Shown here: piece after piece, positions 1,786-42,930 of the stretch | Numbering within the stretch: the stretch's first letter is position 1 | Layout: the number at the start of each line of letters is the position of its first letter | Assembly: GCA_008690995.1 (NCBI GenBank) | Contig: VRMN01000002.1 | Location: forward strand, 930,001 to 994,000 | DNA: 64,000 bases | Direction: 5' to 3' | Source of the DNA: Porphyridium purpureum | Taxonomy: Eukaryota | The notes under the pieces: model-generated | Told to the model about the DNA's origin: nothing | What the model saw: only the letters and a program-made list of their open reading frames with translations | Databases searched by the model: none | Translations under genes and position numbers: made by a program

Positions 1786-3336
1786 TTACACAAGGCCGCT
1801 GTCAAGCTCCGCGGGCTTGGTCAGGAGACGTATGATGTGCGCGTGGCTCAAGCGACCCGCCAACTTTATCAGGAGCCCTTCAATATCCGCATGTTTCCGC
1901 AACGACCCAGAAGTCTGGTCCACTTCGAAGTGCCGCATCCGCGGCAGTGCGTTCTCGAAAGGACTAAATAGTTTCATGATTACCGTTTGTTTCTCAGGGA
2001 CATCTGCGTGACGATTGATATCTGCATCACAATTGATGAGCAACTCAATCATATCTACAACTTGCCACGGCGTACGATCCTCTTGCCCCCATCGATGCCA
2101 TCTGCTCAAGAGCAGGTAGTCCAGCGGCGTGTCTCCACTTTCGTCAGGTTGATCAGCGGGAACGCCGGCGCGGATCAGCAAGTACGCACAACGCAAACTC
2201 TTCCAATCGCGGACACTGCCCTGTGCCGCAAAAGCACCAATAAATTTGTGCAAAGCCGTTTCGCCCCGCCTCGTGACAGCAGACGCGTCCGCGCCTTTTT
2301 TCAGCAGCAGACCAATGCATTCATTCCGCCAAACACCAGCACTTTCAGCGTCCTCAGACGCCGATACGGCGTAAAAAAGAGCATTCTCGCCCCGACTATC
2401 GATCTTATTGACCCATGCTCCATGTTCCAAGAGAACGTGCACGCATTCTAGGTGTCCGCTCCGAGTAGCATGCATTAGCGATGTCGTTCCGCACGCGCCT
2501 TCCGACGCATTCACATCCGCGCCGTGATCGACGAGCCGGCACACGCACGTGGTGTGCCCATTTGAAGCAGCAGCACCCAACGGCGTCCGCCCTAAAGCAG
2601 TCGTCGCGTGTACCATTGCACCATGCTCGATCAAAAGTCGGACACACTCGTCATGGCCAAACTCGGCCGCCATCATCAAAGCTGTTTGGCCTTGCTCGTC
2701 CGCCGCGTTCACATTTGCGTCATGCTCCATGAGCAAACTCAGACACGAATCGTGTCCTTTTCGAGCAGCGCTCATTAAAGCCGTCCTCCCCCTTCCAGTC
2801 ACCGAGTTCACATCCGCGCCATGCTGGATCAACAAACTCACGCAGACGTGGTTCCCATACGACGCAGCACTCATCAAGGCCGTCTCGCCGTGTATTGAAT
2901 CCCCGATATTCACGGAAGCCCCAAACTTCACGAGGTGAGAGAGACACGTGCTCTGTCCATACGCAGCAGCATGCATTAATGCTGTTTTCCCGAAGCAATC
3001 TGCATCGTCCACGTGCGCTCCATGTTCGATCAGCAAGCAAACACATGCGCCATTGCCATGTCTTGCGGCATAGATGAGAGCCGTTCTTCTGTACGGACAG
3101 CGGGCGTTGACGTCCCCTCCATGCTCAATCAGAACACGAAGGCACGCGACGCTGCCTTGCAAGGCTGCTAGCGCTGTCGGCGACAACCCGTCGCCATTGG
3201 CTTCGTCCACGGGGCAACCGACATGTAGCAGTAGCTTCACGTCGCTGTCGCACCCATATTTAGCTGCGACACAAAGCAGAGGCTCGCCTGCACATGCGCC
3301 CCATCCCGCTCGCGGCGCACCCTTGCTCGCCTTCAT
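1786..3336 (-). CDS. Ankyrin repeat protein (paralogue 1)
   Basis: About 10 repeats of G.TAL..AA..G...CV.LL..HGA.VN; first ATG at 3336 (ORF track starts at TTG 3342). Confidence 0.9.
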   Translation of the reverse strand: MKASKGAPRAGWGACAGEPLLCVAAKYGCDSDVKLLLHVGCPVDEANGDGLSPTALAALQGSVACLRVLIEHGGDVNARCPYRRTALIYAARHGNGACVCLLIEHGAHVDDADCFGKTALMHAAAYGQSTCLSHLVKFGASVNIGDSIHGETALMSAASYGNHVCVSLLIQHGADVNSVTGRGRTALMSAARKGHDSCLSLLMEHDANVNAADEQGQTALMMAAEFGHDECVRLLIEHGAMVHATTALGRTPLGAAASNGHTTCVCRLVDHGADVNASEGACGTTSLMHATRSGHLECVHVLLEHGAWVNKIDSRGENALFYAVSASEDAESAGVWRNECIGLLLKKGADASAVTRRGETALHKFIGAFAAQGSVRDWKSLRCAYLLIRAGVPADQPDESGDTPLDYLLLSRWHRWGQEDRTPWQVVDMIELLINCDADINRHADVPEKQTVIMKLFSPFENALPRMRHFEVDQTSGSLRKHADIEGLLIKLAGRLSHAHIIRLLTKPAELDSGLV

Positions 3337-3718
3337 CCGCAATGGCCGAGATCACACAGCACGAGTGCCACGCGTACCTCGGCGCAAATCGAATCTCAGG
3401 ATGTCACGCTGTGGAGGGAAGACGAGCGAAGGTAGGGAGTCGGGACAGTGTTTGTGCGAGATGTTCAAGGCTGGATGCTCGGACCAGGTCAGAAGCGTCG
3501 AACATACGCAGCACGAGTTGTACGTCGGGGTTGTTAGGGAGACCTAAAGTGCAGAACAATTTTGCGCGGGGAGCGTGTTCAATCGGGCGGGTCGGGAAAC
3601 AGGAAGTTTGGACGCGCATTCAGTCTGCTCAGTTTCTGTATGTTGCAGTCCATGCACCATCAAGAAGATCGCTGATCTCGCACATTGAGCCGGAAGGTAA
3701 AACACGTTTGCCTTCAGC

Positions 3719-5002
3719 ATGTCTACGGGTGGTGAATCTCTCCTGTGCGTCGCGGTGGAAACAGGAAATGAGGCCGAGGTGGAGCGTCTGTTGCAACGTG
3801 GGTACCCGATTGAAGAGGGAGGTGTTCCGGGTAGAACTCCGGCCTTTTTAGCGGCAGCAGACGGGAACCTTGCCTGCCTTCGTCTTCTGATCAAATATGG
3901 CGCAAATGTGGACGCAGGGGATCAGTGGTGGGGGCGAACCCCACTGATGGCTGCTGCTCGGACACGGCAAAACTCATGCATGCGTCTCCTGATTGAGCAC
4001 GGCGCAGACGTGAATATTGCTGACTTCTCGGGGAAAACCGCCTTGATCTTTGCCACCGACTTTGGCGATGGAGAGTGCGTTCGCACGCTCATTGAGTGTG
4101 GGGCGGATGTGAATGTTGCTGACGACGACAGCAGGACGCCTTTGATTCATGCTGCTGCAAAGGGTTGTGACGCCTGCGTTCGCGTGTTGTTGCAGCATGG
4201 CGCAGATGTAAATGTGAAGGGAGATGCGGGATGGACAGCCTTGATAAAAGCTGCCGAAAAGGGACTTGGGTCCTGCGCCCGGCTTCTGATCGAGCACGGA
4301 GCGGATGTAAACGCCACTACGGATTATGGCTGGACTGCGTTGATGTATGCTGTTTGGAATGGGCTTGATTCAGCTGTGAATTTCCTGCTCGAGCACAGCG
4401 CCCGCGTCGACATGACTGACCGCTTCGGGGTGACTGCCCTCCACCTCGCAGCGCAGAAAGCCCGCTCGAGGTGCGTTCGTTCTTTGTTGAAATATGGTGC
4501 CGATGGAAATGCAGAAGCAAAGGACGGAATGACAGCTTTGCACAAGCTTGCTTTGAAGGAATGGTGCTTCAGCCGGGCATGGGAGAGCCTCGTCGTCGCT
4601 CAGCTTTTAATCAGTCACGGCGTCGCTGTGGACCGACGTGACGGACACGGGAATACGGCTCTGGACTTGCTCCTGACTTTGAAGCAGTCTTTTCAGATGA
4701 GTGACGGTCCAAATCAGTGTCTGGTGGATTTGTTTGAGCTGCTTGTCCGAGGCGGCTCGGACGTCAATCGGCACGTGAACGACATTGAGAAGCCAACTGC
4801 GTTTATGAAGCTCTTGAATGTTTTGGAGTACGAAAAGGAAGTGCATCTTGGACGGGTGGAGTATGACATTGAAGGCTTGCTCGTTATAAATATCGGTCGG
4901 GTGAACAAGGCCCATATCGTGCGTCTCCTGTTCGAGTATTCTGCAAATGGCGGTGATGGATTTGATTCTCTCAGTTTGCTTGAAGAGGACAACGGGAATT
5001 GA
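3719..5002 (+). CDS. Ankyrin repeat protein (paralogue 2)
   Basis: 427 aa, repeated TPL/TAL..AA...LL.HGADVN units; C-terminus similar to paralogue 1. Confidence 0.9.
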   Translation: MSTGGESLLCVAVETGNEAEVERLLQRGYPIEEGGVPGRTPAFLAAADGNLACLRLLIKYGANVDAGDQWWGRTPLMAAARTRQNSCMRLLIEHGADVNIADFSGKTALIFATDFGDGECVRTLIECGADVNVADDDSRTPLIHAAAKGCDACVRVLLQHGADVNVKGDAGWTALIKAAEKGLGSCARLLIEHGADVNATTDYGWTALMYAVWNGLDSAVNFLLEHSARVDMTDRFGVTALHLAAQKARSRCVRSLLKYGADGNAEAKDGMTALHKLALKEWCFSRAWESLVVAQLLISHGVAVDRRDGHGNTALDLLLTLKQSFQMSDGPNQCLVDLFELLVRGGSDVNRHVNDIEKPTAFMKLLNVLEYEKEVHLGRVEYDIEGLLVINIGRVNKAHIVRLLFEYSANGGDGFDSLSLLEEDNGN

Positions 5003-5235
5003 GACCCGTGTCTGAATGAACCAATTTCCAGGTACGAAACAGACAGGCAAGACACGGATTTGCACGCTTCGAGCATTTCAGCAGCTGATTGAGCGGAGAC
5101 GCATCTGTGGGATGGACACACTTGTAGCGCTGCGGATTCCGGCACCAAGCCCGTTTGCAAGGGGTGCGTGTCTATGATTAGCCGCAGAAACAGTGTGACT
5201 TTCATTCTGGCGAGGTTCGCTTTTCTACCACCTGT

Positions 5236-6489
5236 CTAGACTTGCAGTACATCTTGAAAGAGTCGCCGCATGTGATCGTGAGATATTCGCGCACGATGGT
5301 TCAAAATAAACTCCTCTGCACTCTCCGGATGCGCTCGAGCAAAGACCATCAAAGGTGTGGGACATCCGAACTGTTCTGCACCGGTGTTAATGTTCGCACC
5401 GCATCGGACTAAAAAGGACAAAAGGAGTTGCGCCATGTGCGCGGAACTCCTCCATGCGGTCACGGCAAGATGCATCGGAGTCTCACCGCGTGAATCGACA
5501 AAGTCCGCGGACAGCCCGTACTGAGTGAAAAGTTGAATGAGATCAGACGCGTCACGCATGCTTGCGGCTGAAAGATCGTAGGAGAGCAGCATATGCAACG
5601 CAGTCCTACCAGTGGAATCTGTGGCCCACGCGCTCGCTCCAAGCTTCAACAGACGCAGGCACGGATCACGCCCTTCAGGCACGGCTTCGAGCAAAGCTGT
5701 ATGGCCAGAAGAGGTAGTCCGTTCTTCTAAATCAGCGCCGTGCTCCATTAGGATCTTCACACACTCCGTCGAGCCCCAAAGACCCGCATTCATTAGTGGC
5801 GTGCGCCCTTGACGGTCTCGCGCATCAAGATCCGCACCACGCTCGAGCAAAATCTGAACGAAAGTCTTCTGATCGCTTTCCGCGGCAAGCGCGAGGAGTG
5901 TCTTGCCGGCTTGGTCCCTCATCTCCACGCTCGCCACATGCTCAATGAGCAATCGAAAGCACGACTCGTGCTGCTTCTCTAACGCTAGCACTACCGCCGA
6001 ACGACCGTATCGATCTGCACATTCAATGGCAGCGCCGTGCTCTAGCAGTAATTGGAGACACTCTTTACGGCCCCACTTCGCCGCAAGATGGAGCGCCGTC
6101 TGCCCCTTGTCATTCTTCACGTCCAGTAGCGGGCGATGTCTCAGCAACTCATCTAAGCAGTCCTTTTGATCGAATTTAGCAGCAAGCATGACCAACGTCC
6201 ATCCCGTCATCGGATCAACCATGTCTAAATCCACGCCATGACGCGCCAACTCGCGCAGAATCCGAACGCGCCCATGCCTCACCGCGTCCCACAGCGCCTC
6301 AAACACGCCCATCCTGACTGCGTCCTGTCCCACGTCGCGCTCGGCAGCCTGCTCATACTTCATACATTCTCTCACACCACGCACATCACCGCGCGCGATG
6401 CACGCACGCATTTCTGTGGCCCAGACGCTTTCCATGCGCGTGCTTGCAGCCACGCCGCGACGCCGCGACGCCGCGGTTGCGCAGCTCAT
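5236..6489 (-). CDS. Ankyrin repeat protein (paralogue 3)
   Basis: GQTALHLAAKWGRKECLQLLLEHGA etc.; first in-frame ATG 6489 (alternative 6435). Confidence 0.88.
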   Translation of the reverse strand: MSCATAASRRRGVAASTRMESVWATEMRACIARGDVRGVRECMKYEQAAERDVGQDAVRMGVFEALWDAVRHGRVRILRELARHGVDLDMVDPMTGWTLVMLAAKFDQKDCLDELLRHRPLLDVKNDKGQTALHLAAKWGRKECLQLLLEHGAAIECADRYGRSAVVLALEKQHESCFRLLIEHVASVEMRDQAGKTLLALAAESDQKTFVQILLERGADLDARDRQGRTPLMNAGLWGSTECVKILMEHGADLEERTTSSGHTALLEAVPEGRDPCLRLLKLGASAWATDSTGRTALHMLLSYDLSAASMRDASDLIQLFTQYGLSADFVDSRGETPMHLAVTAWRSSAHMAQLLLSFLVRCGANINTGAEQFGCPTPLMVFARAHPESAEEFILNHRARISHDHMRRLFQDVLQV

Positions 6490-27454: not shown

Positions 27455-28033
27455 CTAGCTGGCTGATTTAGTTCGAAAGATCCCAACGAATGGCAGATGC
27501 CTGAGCGACTGATTGTAGTCGAGTCCGTACCCAACCACAAACTCATCTGCGATCTCAAAGGCCACGAACTCGACTGGCGGTGTCCCCTCAAGACGACGCG
27601 ATGTGTTCTTATGCAGCAATGTGCACGCCGCGACGCTCTTGCAGTCAAGCTCGCGCACCGCCTGCTTCAGTTTCTGAAGCGTGAGCCCAGTATCCACGAT
27701 ATCCTCGACGATCAACACGTGCCTGCCGGTCAAGTCGACGTGATCGAGCCCTGATAGCTTCACCTGGCCTGAGGACCCGGTGCCCTCATAGCTGGACGCC
27801 TTAATAAAGTAAACTTCCAGCTTGCTCAGTGGGATAGCGCGGGTCAAGTCTGCGACAAACATGTATGAGCCCGTCAGCACACCCAGAATAACCAGCGGTT
27901 GGTCTCGGTACGCCTCGCCGATTTGCGCTCCGAGCTCTTTCACACGCGCGCCAATGCGTTCTTCCGAGAGCAGCACGCGCGCGACTTGGTCTTGAAACTC
28001 GTCCGGCACCGATTCGACGAGGCCGTCCGCCAT
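27455..28033 (-). CDS. HPT: Hypoxanthine phosphoribosyltransferase
   Basis: VLIVEDIVDTGLTL PRPP motif, ASSY, FVVGYGLDY; ATG at 28033 (track extension upstream runs antisense into the Fanzor remnant). Confidence 0.93.
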   Translation of the reverse strand: MADGLVESVPDEFQDQVARVLLSEERIGARVKELGAQIGEAYRDQPLVILGVLTGSYMFVADLTRAIPLSKLEVYFIKASSYEGTGSSGQVKLSGLDHVDLTGRHVLIVEDIVDTGLTLQKLKQAVRELDCKSVAACTLLHKNTSRRLEGTPPVEFVAFEIADEFVVGYGLDYNQSLRHLPFVGIFRTKSAS

Positions 28034-28249
28034 GGTGACTGTGCCGACTGGTTGCCGCTCCGCTGCCGCGTCCACCGCAACATGCAGTGCCCACCGAAAC
28101 TCACGCGCGGCACCCCCCGCGAATCCAGCGCCACCGCCGTCGGCAACAAACGGCCTCCTGCCATTCACGGCCAGCACGAAATCGGTTAAGAATTTAGCCA
28201 CCGGTCTTGAACCGAACCGTTTAGCGAATCTGAATAAACCGAAACACCG

Positions 28250-28950
28250 CGCAAGCCGCTTGAGGCAAATGTGAAGACGGCAAACGCCCGGAAAGCAGAG
28301 CGGCTGCGAGTGAGGCTCGAGCGGCGCGAGGCAATGGGGTACAACGCAGACGAGGAAAAAAAGGCCACGGCGGCACCTGCGGCAAGGATGCGATGACCAG
28401 CGCTGTGCGCTGCGCCGTGACGTAAATTGTTTACCGCAAGCGCATACGGAGCCTGAAGGAGGAGGCGCAAACTGGCACCTCGTCGTGATCCTCACGCAAG
28501 AGTACGGTGGTATCCTGCTGCCCACGCTTGAGATATCCAATGGAAGTCGCTACCATGACTGCAAGCTCCGCTACAAGACCACGCGTCAGATGGACCGCAG
28601 GCGCCACCATTGCTTGTTCGACGATGCTTGCGGTCAATGGCGCCCCGACGCGGGTCGGAGCTGGTAGTGGCTAACGAGGCGTACGCGTCCAAGACCTTCA
28701 GCGCTTGCGGAATGGCCACGACAACTCTGCGCGGCGCCTACCTCTTCGTGTGTAGCTCTACGGGCTGTGGTACAAATATAAACCAGGACGTCCAAAAAGG
28801 CACCAAGAACATTGGACTGCGGAAAAACTTTGGAGCACTGGGCATCTCCGTGCCCTACTTTGGGATCCATCGTCTCTGGCCTGAAGAAGACGGTGAACGA
28901 GACGACACCATATTCGTCGCTGATCTCACCAAGGACGGGGAGGGGCAGAG
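28250..28950 (+). mobile_element. Degenerate TnpB/Fanzor2-type nuclease remnant (copy A)
   Basis: Across two frameshifts: RKRIRSLKEEA / VILTQEYGGILLPTLEIS...KLRYKTTRQM...H / ELVVANEAYASKTFSACG...LRGAYLFVCSSTGCGTNINQDVQKGTKNI; matches IS607-TnpB/Fanzor2 C-terminal pattern; boundaries approximate. Confidence 0.82.
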
Positions 28951-29060
28951 CCTTTGCACGGGAGAGCATCATTCATTTTATCGCACCATCTCTTTCTACT
29001 TGCAGAATGCTTTCAGTTCTTTTAAGGTTATCCAATTCTCAGAAGGAGGGAGCAGGCGTG

Positions 29061-31898
29061 CTACGGAGTTCCAAGAAGTCCGAGGAACGAGGTCTTTCGA
29101 CGAGTACAACTTTCGTCCACCTCAGCCCCGGATCCACTGATGGGCAATCCTCCTGGTTCGCTCGTCCCAAACCCAGCTTCTCGTTCCGTTTGATCTCTTT
29201 GTGAATGCAAGCGATTTGTAACCTGCGAAACTTCTGGCACTGCATCGCTCGTAGCAGAGCTCGCGAGAACGCGACTGCCTGGATCAGTTCTGTGACTTGT
29301 ACTTCTGCCTCGTCGACGCTCACCGCGCCAGCGGTGCCCTTCTCTATCAGTCTGACCGGCGCGACCGGCTTCGCAACTTCGGGCATCTCGCCCAGCTTCC
29401 TCTCCATCTCGCTGACTGACAAGCCCTGAATTCCCTGCATGTGCATCCTCTGCTCGTGCGGATTGCTGCGATCGTGCGCCTTTGGGCTTCCCCACAGCAG
29501 CTCGAGGTGCAGCACCAGAGCCCTCCTTTTGCTTCGCTTGATCTGCCAACGAATCTAAGAATTTGGAGGCAACAAACATGTTTGGTTTTGATTCACTTGC
29601 ATCAGAGCCCGCCAAGCGCATGCTGTCTCGGTCATTGCTTTGACGCACATGACCGCCTTCTCCATGCCCACTCCGTCCGCCTCGCCGACCTTGCCCACCT
29701 CGACTGGCCTGATCGCTGTGACCAACCTTCGACCCTTGAGCACCCAAGCTACCACGGCTTCGGTCTTGCTGACTGAACCGCTGCGGGTTGCGCGCCTGTG
29801 CAACGTCTGCTCGCGCCAATCGAGGCAATTGTGAGCCTTCACGCTTCTGCGCTGTAGCTTGCTGTACATGGCCAATCATGCGACGCATACATTTAAAGCT
29901 GTCCATTCGTACATTAGCGGTCACGTCTCGAACAGACATGCCGATGGTGCCGGAGTTTACGGTGAACAACCGGGGATCTCGCGGAAACAGGAAGTCGTAA
30001 ACGACATCTTCCGTACTTCTGTTCAGCTGAGCAAACGCATCAAGCATTGGGACCAACGAAACCGTACCACTTCTGTAAATCTGCTCTTTTGAAGTGAAAG
30101 TGTCCAAGTCGATGCGGTCGGCAATGGAAGCGACAACGTCTGGCAGCGCATTCTTTCTCATGGGCGCCGGCACGCATAGCAGCCCTGCTGCGTAAGCGCA
30201 CAGTCCGCGCTTGTAAGATATTGCGGGGTCTGGTGAATAGATTTCAAGAAATGCGTCCTGCTGTGAGTTTGAAATCCACTCCAACACCATCGCAACCGGC
30301 GGAGAAAATGGAGCGCAATACATGAAGTAAGGGTCCACACAGCAACCATCCACATACATGAATGTGCACCAAAGAACACCGTTCAAATACTGCACAACAT
30401 TGCACATCTTACTCGGGTCGTCAGGGTATACGCTAGCAAAAAGTTCGGCTTCCTTTCGGAACATCTCAAGTAAAGCTGGCTCAACTTCCACTGTCTCTGC
30501 CATTTCTTTCACACTTCTGATTCTCCCGCTAATAATGCTTGCATCATCATCTTCTTCGTCTTCGGTGCTTAGGACATCCTCCAAAATTTCACTTTCCTCA
30601 GACTCAGTATCAGATTTGTTTGTCTGCACCTCAAATTCACTTCCCTCGCCATCATTTTCCACGTGAATCTGTGTCATTTGGGCCAGTTTGGCTTGCTTGG
30701 CTTGTCCTTCACGTACCTTCATGGCCTTGTAGGTGCTCACCCGAGATCTGAAGTTATCCAGTTGTAGCCTTTCGCGCGTAGGTAGTTCACGGCGCGAGGA
30801 CCCCTTGAAATTCTGCAAAAAGGAGAAGAAAAACTTCCAGTTGAATGTCCGCTTTGACACGTTCAAAAGCGCACTGGCACCAGACGGAAGCTTGGACCCT
30901 GCTGGTGTCGCTTCGGCCCACGAAAAGGACTCCTTCCGCACCTTAGCATAAGCTTCCAGGGCGGAGGCGGGAGACAGGTGCCCAAGCTTCCTGAGGTAAT
31001 CGTTCCCGACCATGGTACACATACATATAAAGTCAGCGACAAGCCGGGCTTCATCCAGTTGGATACTACTCTTCTTGACGTGCCGAGAGGGATCCCGAGC
31101 GGCCATGCTCTTACTCAGAAGTACTCGCGCCTCATCAATACGCAAAATTTCGTCGCCCACCACGTATAGGGACGAGTATTCAGTCAGTCCCAACATTTGC
31201 ACGAATAGGTCGCTATCCGCACCCACGACTACGGTCACGTCGTCCACAGTAGGAAGTGTTTTCCACCGAAAGCCGCTGACTGTCTGCATGCTCGATGGTT
31301 CACGGATAGCACTTGCCAGATACTCAAGAATTTTGAGCTCGCCTTCGCCAGGCACGTCGCAACTCGAAACAATCACATCAAGGTGTGGCGTCCCGTTCGA
31401 CTTTTCTTTCGCGCCCGCGACTGTTCGTGCAGCATATTTCTTGAGCGCAATGTGCAAGTGCCTCATCAATGCAGTACCTGGAGTCAAAGCAGAGCGCTCC
31501 AAGGGAGAATCGCTCCGTATGCCCGCATCCTCGACAACTTCTTCCGTAAGCTTCCGCCGATCTCTCTGCTCAAACAGCTTGCCAAGAGGAGCGGCGCCAT
31601 CCACGGCAATGAAAAGGGACTTGCGTGGCCGGAGCTGCTTGATGATTTCGTCAAGCTTCTATTGTATCGAGCCAACCATTTGGCGATAAAAAAACGACTC
31701 TTGTTGTGTCAGCGGCTTTTTCTGCGTCCGTTTCTTGACGGCATGATGGGTCTCATGCAGCAAGCAGTTCATGTCCACCAGCACATGGTCGACACCCGCG
31801 GCAAACACCCGCGCCATGTCCTTCTTATTTTTGCTGCGGCCCTTGTGAGCCGACTTGACCGAGCTCTTCAGCCATTTGTGCAGGTCCTTCACGCCCAT
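29061..31898 (-). CDS. XRN-family 5'-3' exoribonuclease-like protein with one in-frame TAG at 31659-31661
   Basis: MGV..L.KWL, VLVDMNCLLH, RPRKSLFIAVDGAAP.GKLFEQR.RR, VPGEGELKI, GADSDL, MVGNDYL, QYLNGVLW...Y; the two track ORFs are in the same frame. Confidence 0.85.
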
Positions 31899-36521: not shown

Positions 36522-38516
36522 ATGAGGTTTGTAGAGGGAGGAGAGGGAGGGGAGGAGGAGGGTGCTGGGGGGAGGACAGAAGGACGGTGGGGGTGGGTGG
36601 ATGGTGAGGATGGAGGTGTGGTGGTGCGCTGTGGTGGCACGCAGCGTCGCAGGGCATCGCGGGCTGAGCAGGTCGCGCCGTTGCGCGCGAGTGTCGCCGC
36701 CGCCGTGCAGCCGAGCGCGCGCGGTCGCTCCGCCGTCGCGCCGGCGTCCGCGTCGGCCGCCGCAGCGGGATCGGAGACTGGCGCGCAGGCGAGCAGGGCG
36801 GCCGTCGTGCCAGACGTGCCCGCGGCAGCCCGCGACGGCCATGACCACAAGCTGGCGTCCAGTAAGCGCGTAGGAGGGAAGAAGGCGGCGTCCGAATCCA
36901 CGCAGCATGCGGCGCGTGGAGCAAGCAGTGGCGTCGAGTCGAAGCGTGGCGCGGAAGGCCAGAGACGGCTGCGCGAGTTGCAGCAGGAAGGGAGCGAAAC
37001 GCTCGAGCTGGAGCATCTGGATGATCAGATGCACGCTCCCAAGCTGCCCGTGTGGCTCGGCCGAAAACACAAGGAAGAGTCAAAGGCAAAAATTGGGCGC
37101 GCAAACAAAGGTAAGGTTCCTTGGAACAAGGGCCTCAAGCATTCAGAGGAGACGCGGCAGAAGATCGCGGCGAGCACGCGCGCCGCCATGGCAAAAGGAA
37201 AGGTAAGAGACAAGCTCGCAAGTGCCGCGAAGGGCAAGCGACATTCGGAGGAGACCCGCGCTAAAATCAAGGCGTCGCTAGCGCGGCGAAGGCGTGAAAT
37301 AGAGATAGTGAAAGGAGTAGCGCCCTCTTTGAAAACGGGTCGAGAAGCAGCGTTGAGTCTGGCATTGAAAAATGGATTGAAATCCAAAATCGGCGCGGTG
37401 CCAGAAGACCTGCTTCTCCCGCGCAATGGCCTCAGGCGAAGAAAGCAGACGAACACAGGCAGCCGCGTGACAGCGTTTCATTGGGCGCCAGAAGTGTGTG
37501 AGACCGTGCGCGCGGACTTGCAGCGCATGTGGAGTGATCCCAAATTGCGCAGAGAGCTCAACGCGCCTGTTGTGCGAAAAGAATCGCGAACTGCAGATGA
37601 AGGCTCATCCTCGGGGTTATGGCGCAGTACGCCAATGAAAGAGGAGACGAAGAAAAAGTTGTCGGAACGAATCAAAGCCATGTGGGCCGACCCTGAATAT
37701 CGCGAGCGGGTGGCCAAGGGCCTTGCGGAGCGCAAAATGCGCGAAGAGCACTTGAAGCGCAACGATCCGCTATATCGGCAATCGAAATTGCTCTCTGAGA
37801 GTCACCGCGAGAAGATCCGCCAGAGCCTACGGCGCAAACACCGAGAAAGACAGGCTGAGCTAGAATCAAGCGGTGTGTCTGAGAAATCACGGGCGCCGCA
37901 AAGGAGAAGCGCTCATGAATCACGTGATTTGAACGGCAGGCTGAACGATGGTCGCCGTGTGAGTCAGGGATCTGGCGGGCGTCGCCTGAAAGGCAAGACG
38001 GACTCAGAAGTGATAGATGCCGTGACATTCTTTAGGGATAACTCAGCGGAAGAGCAGAATTTTGTGGAATCCCTGCAGGCTAGCGGGATTCTTCCACCAC
38101 TGGGTGATGGCGAGATGAGTGCACGGGCAGTACCATTGACCGGAGGACCAGAAGAAGTTTCTGCCCAGATTATGGAAAATGACATGAGCGGCAGCCACAC
38201 TGATATACTGAATGGTCTTGATGTTGATTTGGATATTTATGATTCGCAGGCCGAGCAAGAGAAGCTGGTCGCGTCGGAAGATAACAGTGCGTCGCCGACG
38301 ATCCGCACTGAGCAGGAGAACGTTCCGGCGGTCGACGGCATCGATGTTGGCCCACGCATTGAGGCCGAAGAAGACGAGGGGATCGAGTATGTGAGCGAGA
38401 GTGAGTATGAGACTGACGAAGACGATTGGGATTCGGAGAGTGATTCTGATTTGGAGCACGCCGATTTCGTCCTCGCAGAGCTGCGCCTTTCCTTCGCGAG
38501 GAATGACGCACACTAG
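36522..38516 (+). CDS. NUMOD3-motif nucleic-acid-binding protein
   Basis: Repeated (K/R)HSEETR.KI units, GKVPWNKG, EETKKKLSERIKAMWADPEYRE; true start uncertain. Confidence 0.75.
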   Translation: MRFVEGGEGGEEEGAGGRTEGRWGWVDGEDGGVVVRCGGTQRRRASRAEQVAPLRASVAAAVQPSARGRSAVAPASASAAAAGSETGAQASRAAVVPDVPAAARDGHDHKLASSKRVGGKKAASESTQHAARGASSGVESKRGAEGQRRLRELQQEGSETLELEHLDDQMHAPKLPVWLGRKHKEESKAKIGRANKGKVPWNKGLKHSEETRQKIAASTRAAMAKGKVRDKLASAAKGKRHSEETRAKIKASLARRRREIEIVKGVAPSLKTGREAALSLALKNGLKSKIGAVPEDLLLPRNGLRRRKQTNTGSRVTAFHWAPEVCETVRADLQRMWSDPKLRRELNAPVVRKESRTADEGSSSGLWRSTPMKEETKKKLSERIKAMWADPEYRERVAKGLAERKMREEHLKRNDPLYRQSKLLSESHREKIRQSLRRKHRERQAELESSGVSEKSRAPQRRSAHESRDLNGRLNDGRRVSQGSGGRRLKGKTDSEVIDAVTFFRDNSAEEQNFVESLQASGILPPLGDGEMSARAVPLTGGPEEVSAQIMENDMSGSHTDILNGLDVDLDIYDSQAEQEKLVASEDNSASPTIRTEQENVPAVDGIDVGPRIEAEEDEGIEYVSESEYETDEDDWDSESDSDLEHADFVLAELRLSFARNDAH

Positions 38517-38679: not shown

Positions 38680-41040
38680 TCAATGATTCAATCCCCTCCT
38701 CTGCAGATATCCGGATTTGGACGCCATTTCACCCGACAGATCCATATCAAGCATATCAATTGAGCTTGCCACGAAACGAGGCGGGCCATGCCCCGATGCG
38801 CGCTGTCTTGGCCAGTGGAAAGATCGTTTTCCTAAATGCTCCATTTGCATCGCAAACCCGTCCAGAGAAAAATACCACGCCGCACCTGGCTGGAGTGTCG
38901 CGCTTTGAACAAGCGCAAAGACACGATTCGAACTGTCTGACGCATGACGTGGCCGTTCAGCCAGCGGAACTGGCGTCCAAATATAAATTCTGCGGCAGTC
39001 GTCTTGTTCTGCAGCCACACACACGACAACACCCAAACCCAGCGCAGACCATTCGTGTGGTCGAGTCGGAAGGACACCCACAGGGCCACAAAGAATGCCT
39101 ACAAAGGTATCCAGTAAGCTGTCGAGACGCTGGGGCATTGTGTCGTCGCATGAGACACTCCCATTTTTGCCAAAGTCCTCGCATGACGCGCCGTCGTTGT
39201 CCAGCAGAAAGCACTTGTGCAGCTGAGTGCTGTGTACACTGTACAGAGCCGTGCCTGGCGAACGAAAGTAGCTGAAGAAGAGCGCATCGCGTGTGAGCTT
39301 CGCGGAATGTGTGCTCCGCCTCTCTTGAACAATATCATGCGTATTCCATGACGTCGCGAAAACAGAAAAGGGTGTCAAACTATGTCCCAGATCCAACATG
39401 TCGCCTTCCTTTCCGGATAAATCGACAACACACGTTGCTTGCGACGGCAGCTTTTCCAGCAGCCACGAGATCATCTCTGCACCAAAGCCCGTGATCCAGC
39501 CTGGTGTGTTGATGAAAACCAAGCATGAACGACCGCGCCTCCGCTGGTTCGCAGTACACGTGGCCAAAAGAGAGCTCACTGCTTCCATGTACGGCTGCGG
39601 AAAGGAAGACGGAGAAAACCCGCCAACAAAGCGTGCGTCAATCATTTCGTGTTTCGTGTACGAACACCATGCAGGGCTTAAGATTGGCGTGGTGATTCTG
39701 TTCAAGGACACAAAACCAGGCGCTGTCATTTCGGACTGGCCCGTGTCCACGTCCAACCACAGCAAATCTACGTCAGCCAAACTGCGCGATATCTCACTGG
39801 TTTGAAAGCATAGCGCGCGAGTCGCTAGTGAGCGCATGAGCATCGATTTCCCGGATTGCTTTGGACCCACACACATCCAGTACTGAGCAGGTGCGCGGTC
39901 GTCGACTGCCGACGCGGCCTCCAAATTCTGCTGCAATTTGCTCGCCATTGCATCCCAACCTTGCCATAGGTGGAAACGCGCACTTAGTTTCGAGTCGGAG
40001 TCTGTTAGACTGCTGCTTTCTGAGCCAGACGCCCTTTCCTTCACAGTTGGACTTGAAGCGTTCGAAACGACCTGGACGATCATTGAATTTAAACATTCAC
40101 AAGCCGAAATCCCGTCCAGACTGCGCAGCAATGGTGTGTACTTGTGCGACTCGGCAAACGGCTCTAAAAACTCACACATGACGAGCGCCGACACTAAGTT
40201 TTGTGGATTCAATTGAGATGATGGACCTGTCGATGATGACGTCCAGTGCCACCTTTCCAAATGAGACTTAATCTGTTCTATTCTGTGAGGGTCAGCAATC
40301 TCCCGGTTCAGGGCGCGAAACATGTGCTCGTCTCGTTTATGCTGGCCGCTTTGGTCGCACTTCGACGAGACCGTCATCTCGACGGCATAACTAGTGTACG
40401 GCGAGGAATACAGAGGCAAGAAGGTTTGCATCGGCCCCAAAGGGCACCCCAAAATATCAACACAGCCCATGAGAATTTTGATGCGCGCCCGGCCGTACAA
40501 TCTCAATTTCGTCCCTCTTGCAAGAACCAACAGCACGGAATCCCGATGCGCAAGTTTTCGCTCCGGTGCTGAAGTCGTCGAGTTGAAATGTGATGGCTCG
40601 AGCATATCTTTCAGCTCGCACACGTAGTGTCTTATGGTCAAGCTGGAGCTACTCGCCGCCCTCTTGCCTTGTGGAAGCACCGAGACATGATCATCTGGTC
40701 CCCGAACGGAAGAGACAGCATGGCTAGCATGGACTTTGTTGCCCGATGCGCTTTGGTCTTCGGCAGCGGAACCGGAAAGCGGATCTGACCTCGGCACTGA
40801 AGGTATTGTCCCCACGAACCCATAATCCTCCACTTCGGATCCTGCCTCACGAGCTGGCGATCCTGTCGCAAATTGCGTCTTGGTCGATTCGGCCCTTGCG
40901 CGGCGCCGCAAGCTTGTTTTGGCGATCGACCCCTCTAAAGATCCCGTGTCATTGTTGGAGGGACGACGGCGTGTGTGACTGCTTCTGGTGGCCTTGCCAA
41001 ACCCGCGACCGAGCACGTGTGAGGCGCGCCATGACTTCAT
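38680..41040 (-). CDS. NOL9: Polynucleotide 5'-hydroxyl kinase NOL9/Grc3
   Basis: P-loop GPKQSGKS, LDVDTGQSEM..PGFVSL, INTPGWITGFG; ATG at 41040 (track extension overlaps the Fanzor remnant). Confidence 0.87.
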   Translation of the reverse strand: MKSWRASHVLGRGFGKATRSSHTRRRPSNNDTGSLEGSIAKTSLRRRARAESTKTQFATGSPAREAGSEVEDYGFVGTIPSVPRSDPLSGSAAEDQSASGNKVHASHAVSSVRGPDDHVSVLPQGKRAASSSSLTIRHYVCELKDMLEPSHFNSTTSAPERKLAHRDSVLLVLARGTKLRLYGRARIKILMGCVDILGCPLGPMQTFLPLYSSPYTSYAVEMTVSSKCDQSGQHKRDEHMFRALNREIADPHRIEQIKSHLERWHWTSSSTGPSSQLNPQNLVSALVMCEFLEPFAESHKYTPLLRSLDGISACECLNSMIVQVVSNASSPTVKERASGSESSSLTDSDSKLSARFHLWQGWDAMASKLQQNLEAASAVDDRAPAQYWMCVGPKQSGKSMLMRSLATRALCFQTSEISRSLADVDLLWLDVDTGQSEMTAPGFVSLNRITTPILSPAWCSYTKHEMIDARFVGGFSPSSFPQPYMEAVSSLLATCTANQRRRGRSCLVFINTPGWITGFGAEMISWLLEKLPSQATCVVDLSGKEGDMLDLGHSLTPFSVFATSWNTHDIVQERRSTHSAKLTRDALFFSYFRSPGTALYSVHSTQLHKCFLLDNDGASCEDFGKNGSVSCDDTMPQRLDSLLDTFVGILCGPVGVLPTRPHEWSALGLGVVVCVAAEQDDCRRIYIWTPVPLAERPRHASDSSNRVFALVQSATLQPGAAWYFSLDGFAMQMEHLGKRSFHWPRQRASGHGPPRFVASSIDMLDMDLSGEMASKSGYLQRRGLNH

Positions 41041-41119: not shown

Positions 41120-41820
41120 ACTTGCAAAGCACGGTGAGGTGAGTGTGAGACGACGAACGCCCAGAAGGGCTGCTGCGAGTGAGACTCGAGCGACGGCGTA
41201 AGGCAATGGAATAGATATTCAAATGACGAAAAAGGCCACGGCGGCGCCTGCGGCAAGGGTGGGACTGGCAGCGCTGTGCGTTGCGCCGTGCCGTGCCGTA
41301 AATCCTGTACTTCGCGCACTTACGCAACCTAAAGGAAGAGCGATAAACGAACCTGGCCGTGATCCTCGTGCGCGGGTATGACGGCAGTCTGCTGTGTACG
41401 TTTGAGGTTTCCTCTTTCATTTGGTAGCGTGACGACAAGCTCCGCTCCAAGGCCGCGCGTCAGATCGCCCGCAGGCGCCACGACCTTTTCTTTGACGCTG
41501 CTTCCGCTCAAGGGCGCCCCGACGCGACGCCGAGTAAGCTTCGGTCTACGAGGCGCACATGTCCAGGACCTTTAGCGTTCGCGGAATGATCCCGGCCAAT
41601 CCGAGTGGCCCTTAGCTGTTCGCGTGTAGCTCCGCGGCATGCAGTGCAAGTCTGAGCCTGGATGTCAGAACGGCGCCAAGAAACTTGCATGGCGGAAATA
41701 CTTTGAGGCGTTGGGCATCTCGGTGCCCTGCTTCGGGACCTCGCCCTTCTGGTCTGGTAGCGGCCCGGACCGCGATAAAGTTTCGAGTCTCGCGAGAAAC
41801 GCGAGGTAAGGGTCAAGCGA
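41120..41820 (+). mobile_element. Degenerate TnpB/Fanzor2-type nuclease remnant (copy B)
   Basis: Colinear DNA similarity to 28250-28950; HLRNLKEER*TNLAVILVRGYDGSLLCTFEVS...KLRSKAARQI...H / VYEAHMSRTFSVRG...LFACSSAACS...DV / GAKKLAWRKYFEALGISVP; several stops and frameshifts. Confidence 0.78.
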
Positions 41821-41979: not shown

Positions 41980-42930
41980 TCAGAGCAGCGCGCCCAGCAT
42001 CTCGCGAAGGCCAATGGAGCCTTTCGGATGCATGTCTTCGTCTTCGGCAATGTACAGGTGCATTAGTTCATTGTCGACCATGGCGGTGCATACGTCTGCC
42101 CAACTTGCCAGCGTGCTTGCATACACACAGTTGCTGTTCATGAGGGTCTGCAAAAGCACTTTCTTCTCCTTGGTGGTTGTCACCGTCGCCTCGACGGTGT
42201 CCGCGGACTTGCGCAAGTAGTGAAGCACGGTGTCCTGCAGGTCGAGCCATGTCGACTCGTGTATGTAGAGTAGCTTTGAGTCGAATCCAGAGATAGAGTC
42301 CACCAATTTGCCGGTGTTCTCGTCGACGACTGCGGCGAACTCGGCGTTCTTTTCAATGAGCGTGTTGAATGCCTGGATCGCGGTCACGTTGGAATTGACG
42401 GTGAGGACGGGTTCCATGTTTCCAAAGTCGGCGACTTTTGGGTTCCGGAGCGGCGCGGGGAGTTTGTGGAAGACGTACGACAGAATTTGCCACCCGTCGA
42501 GCACATTCAGCAACTTGGTACTGTTGGGCCCGCCAAACACCGCTAGGTAGTGCACTTTCCGCTCGACCATTGTCTTTGCGGCTTGGTACATGGTGTCGGA
42601 CTCCTTAATGGACACGAACGGGTGTCGTTTGGAGCGGTTGATGGCGTCTCTCGCTGTGTAGCCGGAGACTGGCGCGTCGTCGTTTTCGTCTGCGCCGTCG
42701 TCTTCCGGGGAGGACAGGATAGTGGTGAGCACGTCGACGACGTCGATGAACCCGATCCACTTCTTCTCAGCGGCGCTGTACACCGGCGCGATGAGCGAGT
42801 TGTGCTTCTGCAGGAGCGCGAACACGGTGCTGAGCGAGTCGCCCTCTGCGACGACGACGAGCTCGCGCGGGTCCTGCTGCAGCGCGCTTCCCGCCGGCAC
42901 GTCGTGCATTGACTTTTCCTCCGTCACCAT
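41980..42930 (-). CDS. CBS-domain protein (AMPK-gamma/SDS23-like)
   Basis: APVYS...IGFIDVVDVL, AAVVDENTGKLVDSIS, HLYI...PKGSIGLREML; ATG at 42930. Confidence 0.8.
   Translation of the reverse strand: MVTEEKSMHDVPAGSALQQDPRELVVVAEGDSLSTVFALLQKHNSLIAPVYSAAEKKWIGFIDVVDVLTTILSSPEDDGADENDDAPVSGYTARDAINRSKRHPFVSIKESDTMYQAAKTMVERKVHYLAVFGGPNSTKLLNVLDGWQILSYVFHKLPAPLRNPKVADFGNMEPVLTVNSNVTAIQAFNTLIEKNAEFAAVVDENTGKLVDSISGFDSKLLYIHESTWLDLQDTVLHYLRKSADTVEATVTTTKEKKVLLQTLMNSNCVYASTLASWADVCTAMVDNELMHLYIAEDEDMHPKGSIGLREMLGALL

Follow-up and report, generated by a model that had tools for sequence, protein, structure and literature searches.

Genomic setting of the two copies

The window, which is the whole stretch of 64,000 nucleotides of Porphyridium purpureum DNA that was analysed, is gene-dense, intron-poor and eukaryotic, with a GC content of about 55%. 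The nearest named match of its RPL26 is that of Erythrolobus australicus (85%), with a partial Porphyridium protein at 80% and Galdieria at 73–75%, which marks the host as a red alga of the Porphyridiophyceae type. Two intergenic gaps of this window hold related remnants of a nuclease gene of the TnpB/Fanzor superfamily. A preliminary description had placed the first between HPRT and XRN genes, and the domains encoded on both flanks bear this out. The same description had overlooked the second, 12.9 kb downstream. The features are as follows.

27455–28033, minus strand: phosphoribosyltransferase (HPRT-like), flanking copy 1 (PF00156, E 5e-25)
28209–28217, plus strand: E-P-N, possibly a decayed RuvC-I DPG, within chance; both copies have E-P at corresponding positions (28209 and 41071), about where DPG is expected
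28261–28883, plus strand: copy 1, the span common with copy 2 (blastn 449/632 identical, 71%, E 1e-101; outside it, identity drops to background)
28432–28467, plus strand: piece 1, the helix preceding RuvC-II (RKRIRSLKEEA), which opens the frameshift-aware alignment at profile position 372 of 512
28473–28616, plus strand: piece 2, the RuvC-II region, with Pro 28521–28523 at the canonical Glu position (HMM match E 7.7e-5 within the window)
28619–28870, plus strand: piece 3, matching PF07282 (E 8.4e-8), with a tail common to the nearest intact relatives
29061–31466, minus strand: XRN 5'-3' exonuclease, flanking copy 1 (PF03159, E 2e-6)
38680–41040, minus strand: NOL9/CLP1-type kinase, left of copy 2 (PF16575, PF24419)
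41135–41756, plus strand: copy 2, in a more advanced state of decay and interrupted by several stops (43.9 bits frameshift-aware and 73.5 bits with a nearest-relative profile; background at most 25)
41980–42930, minus strand: CBS-domain protein, right of copy 2 (PF00571)

Residence in a eukaryotic genome is indicated by the eukaryotic genes that flank the remnant on one contig. The XRN frame (29061–31658) is open for 64 codons before its first ATG and its Pfam match begins mid-domain; this puts the real start, or a 5' exon, still further upstream. Elsewhere in the window, three neighbouring ankyrin-repeat genes in alternating orientation occupy 1786–6489, and a 664-residue ORF at 36522–38516 carries a NUMOD3 motif (E 1.6e-17). 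NUMOD3 is a DNA-binding module that is usual in homing endonucleases.

A nuclease C-terminus in three frames

Read in three plus-strand frames, the segment from 28432 to 28870 corresponds to about the last 140 residues of a TnpB/Fanzor nuclease. The three peptides stitched together in the preliminary description were all located, at 28435–28467 (RKRIRSLKEEA), 28485–28610 (VILTQEY...RHH) and 28619–28822 (RRCLRS...NIGLR). The extent given there, 28250–28950, was too wide, as the protein signal covers only 28398 or 28432 to 28870. Nor does the list of ORFs show only short unrelated fragments, as had been claimed: one piece lies inside a 167-residue ORF with an ATG start (28637–29140) that matches PF07282 with E 1.5e-6.

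A frameshift-aware profile aligns 28432–28825 onto positions 372–498 of 512 with two shifts and 102.4 bits; none of 40 shuffles exceeds 20.9 bits, and none of the 128 tiles of the window without either copy exceeds 25.2. Piece 3 alone scores 32.7 bits with PF07282 (Pfam cut-off 26.3, E 8.4e-8). The assignment to a TnpB/Fanzor2-type remnant stands, and the profile search that had been proposed as its check returned a significant TnpB/Fanzor match. All 30 Atlas matches were PF07282 clusters (best 0.94). The NCBIfam TnpB models match piece 3 weakly, with E 9e-4 and 0.02, far under their cut-offs, and its best solved-structure match, the mimivirus Fanzor2 (9b0l), has an E of 0.069, weak when taken alone. 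Searched by itself, piece 2 had no match among solved structures, phages, plasmids or Atlas entries.

The PF07282-type zinc finger between RuvC-II and RuvC-III, a feature of the superfamily, is present in piece 3, together with the shifted catalytic Glu, the RuvC-III Asp and an N-x-x-ALG tail. The codons for Glu at 28676–28678 (GAG) and Asp at 28787–28789 (GAC) are where the preliminary description had placed them. It was also right about the Pro in ILLP (28521–28523): in the alignment a canonical TnpB has Glu in this column, and the mimivirus Fanzor2 has Gly. Glu 28676 aligns with residue 467 of PDB 9b0l, which is the catalytic E467 of that protein; the E467A variant is termed catalytically dead in a figure legend of PMC10530073. 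The zinc finger is damaged, its first Cys being replaced by Phe in both copies, which had gone unnoticed. With two frameshifts inside the aligned part and the first Asp of the D-E-D triad missing, copy 1 has no intact frame.

The region was compared with 4 of the 24 listed sequencing runs. One of them extends over the entire stretch and is possibly the assembly source; the three others cover both breaks. Since none of the four shows a substitution or an indel, it is unlikely that the frameshifts arose as errors of assembly.

A second copy and a shared history

Copy 2 was first met at 41320–41466 with a cyanophage TnpB as query. It contains four stops in 41161–41490 plus a TAG at 41212, five in total in the frame read. 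The shifted Glu is kept, and Cys stands in place of Pro at the canonical site. Profile scans found no third copy within the 64-kb window, and no intact one. In runs X6 and X18, copy 2 carries about ten extra bases relative to the other two runs, which suggests an indel polymorphism between strains.

There is no indel between the copies from 28473 to 28790, and the frameshift near 28617 is therefore common to both. Differences between them are spread over codon positions 1, 2 and 3 as 40, 44 and 48 (154 codons). Since this frameshift and the Cys-to-Phe change are shared and the differences are even over codon positions, it is likely from the sequences that an already broken ancestor was copied once, after which both copies decayed. 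A programmed frameshift or an intron was considered for the common break and found no support, and further stops and shifts remain.

IS607-like elements have defined ends with a common dinucleotide core, and neither inverted repeats nor duplicated targets. The copies end together at the 3' side (28883 and 41756), and at the 5' side similarity fades over 28215–28261; no empty site was seen. Their flanks are unrelated and their span is the same, and because of this the comparison leans towards transposition of a non-autonomous derivative over local duplication. Two observations sit less easily with neutral decay. The dN/dS between the copies, 0.70 (bootstrap interval 0.45–1.05), leaves room for some coding constraint. 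The 5' part (28261–28430) is better kept than the coding core, with 133/163 (82%) against 245/355 (69%) identical in ungapped columns (Fisher p 0.003), a figure inflated by the gapped alignment; neutral decay does not predict such a difference.

Missing parts of the element

No RuvC-I DPG was found upstream of either copy, the best scores with two profiles being 10.9–13.8 bits against null means of 11.9–13.1, and the RuvC-I region appears from the sequence to be lost or decayed. A VLAIDP at 40916–40933 was rejected as RuvC-I: it scores 11 bits against a null mean of 11.9, its distance upstream is too great (about 240 bases where ~90 would be expected), and it runs antisense within the NOL9-type ORF. 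The N-terminal half of the nuclease is not detectable in either copy. A profile built from 25 IS607 loci found no serine recombinase in the 64-kb window (best E 6.2), and none was present in the 34 of 122 ORFs scanned. The host intergenic gaps at both copies are only about 1 kb, so that there is no room for a full element.

In the 3' 190 bases, where a guide RNA was sought, the fold is not better than that of shuffles in either copy (z +0.71 and +0.75), and two-sided change was seen in 0 of 19 consensus pairs. Rfam gave no relevant match, promoter and tandem-repeat scans gave nothing relevant, and no clear terminal inverted repeats were found. The remnant descends from a Fanzor2-type gene, yet it does not count as a functional member of the family, because the DPG, the transposase, the folded guide RNA and an open frame are all lacking.

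Lineage and nearest relatives

Two features define the Fanzor clade, a DPG motif in RuvC-I and a Glu that directly precedes the zinc finger (PMC10711439); in addition, Fanzors have Pro or Gly at the canonical Glu (PMC10530073). The shifted Glu and the Pro at the canonical site are both found in copy 1. With breaks read through as X, copies 1 and 2 reach 82 and 40 bits with an IS607-type profile, and 58–80 and 28–45 bits with twelve random 7-sequence subsets. A set of seven other TnpBs gives 48 and 12 bits, confined to the zinc finger, and a Fanzor1-type profile (10 viral proteins) gives −1 and −3 bits; the contrast is indicative and not unbiased, as the reference sets were seeded from matches to the remnant and from motif scans. 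Judged from these sequences, the lineage is IS607-type (Fanzor2/pro-Fanzor), not Fanzor1. The claim that this genome once hosted a Fanzor-type system is supported in that it fits the rearranged RuvC-II, the match to 9b0l and the IS607-type profile score.

A profile search of 1.84 billion representatives, with a profile dominated by one scaffold protein (L050), gave 10,679 matches. Among 305 proteins rescored, the nearest to the remnant are P0257 (59/147 identical), P0254, P0274 and P0304. These have 560–680 residues if complete, contain DPG, and have in common with the remnant the KTARQM-like and N-Y-x-AL motifs and the tail beyond RuvC-III. The best solved match of P0257 is the mimivirus Fanzor2 (E 4e-26); no close relative of P0257 was found in viral contigs. 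The P0257-type proteins are possibly an undescribed Fanzor2 subclade, going by their sequences. P0257, P0254/P0401/P0410, P0274 and P0304 are intact DPG-type proteins from short assembly contigs, some with basic N-terminal stretches.

In trees built without Fanzor1, the pair of copies falls inside the DPG group with moderate support of 87/83 and 84/96 (bootstrap not settled in the second). No sister is resolved and the pair is not joined to the P0257 group, P0254 and P0257 being the nearest rows by path. The trees do not separate eukaryotic Fanzor2 from bacterial pro-Fanzor. Pattern searches for close relatives of piece 3 gave 21 matches in viral contigs and 475 in prokaryote genomes, with 0 confirmed in either. 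A DNA motif from the common 3' tail occurred at three metagenome loci and one viral locus, all without a TnpB, and was judged to be chance. In the phage IS607 TnpBs L006 and L007–L010, the zinc-finger cysteines are lost and the other RuvC motifs are kept.

Origin and present state of the remnant

The reading that we favour with good confidence is that the C-terminal part of an IS607-type TnpB/Fanzor2 gene survives here in broken and non-coding form, is present twice in the window and is likely the fossil of an extinct transposon copied once after damage. By analogy with the family, the ancestor would have encoded a serine recombinase and a nuclease cutting DNA guided by RNA from the 3' end of the element, and this nuclease would have helped the element to persist at its sites. 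The two copies suggest that a piece of roughly 620 bases without the 5' half was then duplicated or moved locally, and that both copies may have decayed neutrally. The sequence makes it likely that there is no nuclease activity today.

Since searches with single pieces are weak, the likeness could be put down to chance, to a different zinc-ribbon family or to bacterial sequence contaminating the assembly. This explanation has practically no probability left and is already refuted: three pieces are collinear, two copies exist, and 102 bits stand against at most 25 in controls. One 12-kb contig holds the remnant and both eukaryotic flanking genes, which speaks against contamination, and the GC content of 59–60%, against about 55% for the window, was counted on the same side. 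It is also unlikely that intact and possibly active members of the family persist elsewhere in the genome, with the two copies as their non-autonomous derivative. Such a derivative agrees with the identical span between unrelated flanks and with the common 3' end 97 bases past the RuvC-III Asp codon; in related phage IS607 locus pairs, this distance is 114–153 in 7 of 8 and 59 in the eighth. Copies that retain only the guide RNA are described for a Chlamydomonas Fanzor (PMC10530073). A living family is opposed by the contigs of the four runs, each of which shows one further similar place, which is copy 2 (loose ends match 41199–41228 and 41527 onward). There is also no close match to the remnant among the best 150 of the 10,679 profile matches, and, as weak evidence, no relative of piece 3 with 131–2000 residues in a word-indexed protein set (8 candidates, none at E 0.1).

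Somewhat less probable again is a use of the segment by the host in the context of the flanking genes. Each copy has a minus-strand gene on either side, and both copies point the same way, an arrangement that carries little weight in a compact genome where most intergenic DNA sits between genes likewise. Copy 1 is covered by contigs from an RNA run (X18) and a presumed RNA run (X17), which break off at 28326 and 28294, respectively, while a DNA run continues, and the depth of the RNA run falls from 15 to 4 from XRN toward the remnant; this is a weak hint of antisense read-through by the 3' end of the XRN transcript, from contigs that give neither strand nor level of RNA. The better-conserved 5' part would also suit host use, as would a long-range stem in the folds of both copies (~28359–28382 with 28595–28618 in copy 1, 41230–41253 with 41469–41490 in copy 2). 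For spans chosen so as to include the stem, the fold z-scores are unconvincing (minus strand −2.3 and −0.6, plus strand −0.5 and +0.3), and an equally long perfect inverted repeat arises in 20% and 5% of 200 shuffles. The stem is an imperfect inverted repeat in two of the best-conserved segments, and the lone mismatch in the 11-base core of copy 1 would pair as G-U on the minus strand. A fuller version of events is similarly improbable, namely a 620-base dead derivative of a Fanzor2 from an undescribed subclade, which entered red algae in a separate IS607 event, moved after its nuclease broke and is now retained by the host at two unrelated genes, as a structured element of the 3'-UTR or the promoter.

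Comparison with known systems

Fanzor2 in IS607-like elements is already described (PMC3627910, PMC10711439, PMC10530073; review PMC13565253). A 2013 survey of 430 eukaryote genomes reports IS607-like sequences in four phyla, none of them red algal (PMC3673617). For red algae, Fanzor1 is described in Cyanidioschyzon merolae (PMC3627910), and Fanzor elements that are uncharacterised are mentioned for Bangiophyceae (bioRxiv 10.1101/2025.02.11.637652). No report of a red algal Fanzor2 was found in the literature searched, a scope from which most subscription papers and Repbase fall out; the data table of PMC10530073 contains no red algal genera, and a red algal Fanzor2 listed by that study could be missed from this table alone. 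In a pattern-search table in the supplement of PMC10711439, four proteins carry the label 'Fanzor', two from Porphyridium and one each from Rhodosorus and Gracilaria; by eye, none seems to resemble TnpB or the remnant. The present copies likely extend the Fanzor2/IS607 lineage to unicellular red algae, and surveys of annotated proteins miss such fossils. The remnant offers no usable enzyme; the intact P0257, P0401, P0274 and P0304 are a more useful lead.

The Fanzor1 family CMe-1A of the red alga C. merolae resembles the remnant in having old decayed copies in a compact red algal genome. It differs in type and in number, with about 150 copies, some intact (PMC3627910), against two in the window; the remnant scores −1 bit on the Fanzor1-type profile, in which CMe-1 itself is absent. 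Cyanobacterial and phage IS607 TnpBs, the 'pro-Fanzors' (PMC10711439), belong to the same sequence group as the remnant, and the cyanophage protein P0008 as query finds it at E 1e-7. They differ in being prokaryotic and intact and in lacking its N-x-x-ALG tail. Compared with the mimivirus Fanzor2, the remnant has only ~140 C-terminal residues and is frameshifted, with no RuvC-I, serine recombinase or folded guide RNA detected. With this IS607-like Fanzor2 (ApmFNuc/L79 of Acanthamoeba polyphaga mimivirus, PDB 9b0l; PMC10530073, PMC3627910), it shares Pro or Gly in place of the canonical Glu of RuvC-II, the shifted Glu, the zinc finger, the RuvC-III Asp and the lack of clear terminal inverted repeats, and like the Fanzor2 of IS607-like elements it resides in a eukaryotic genome.
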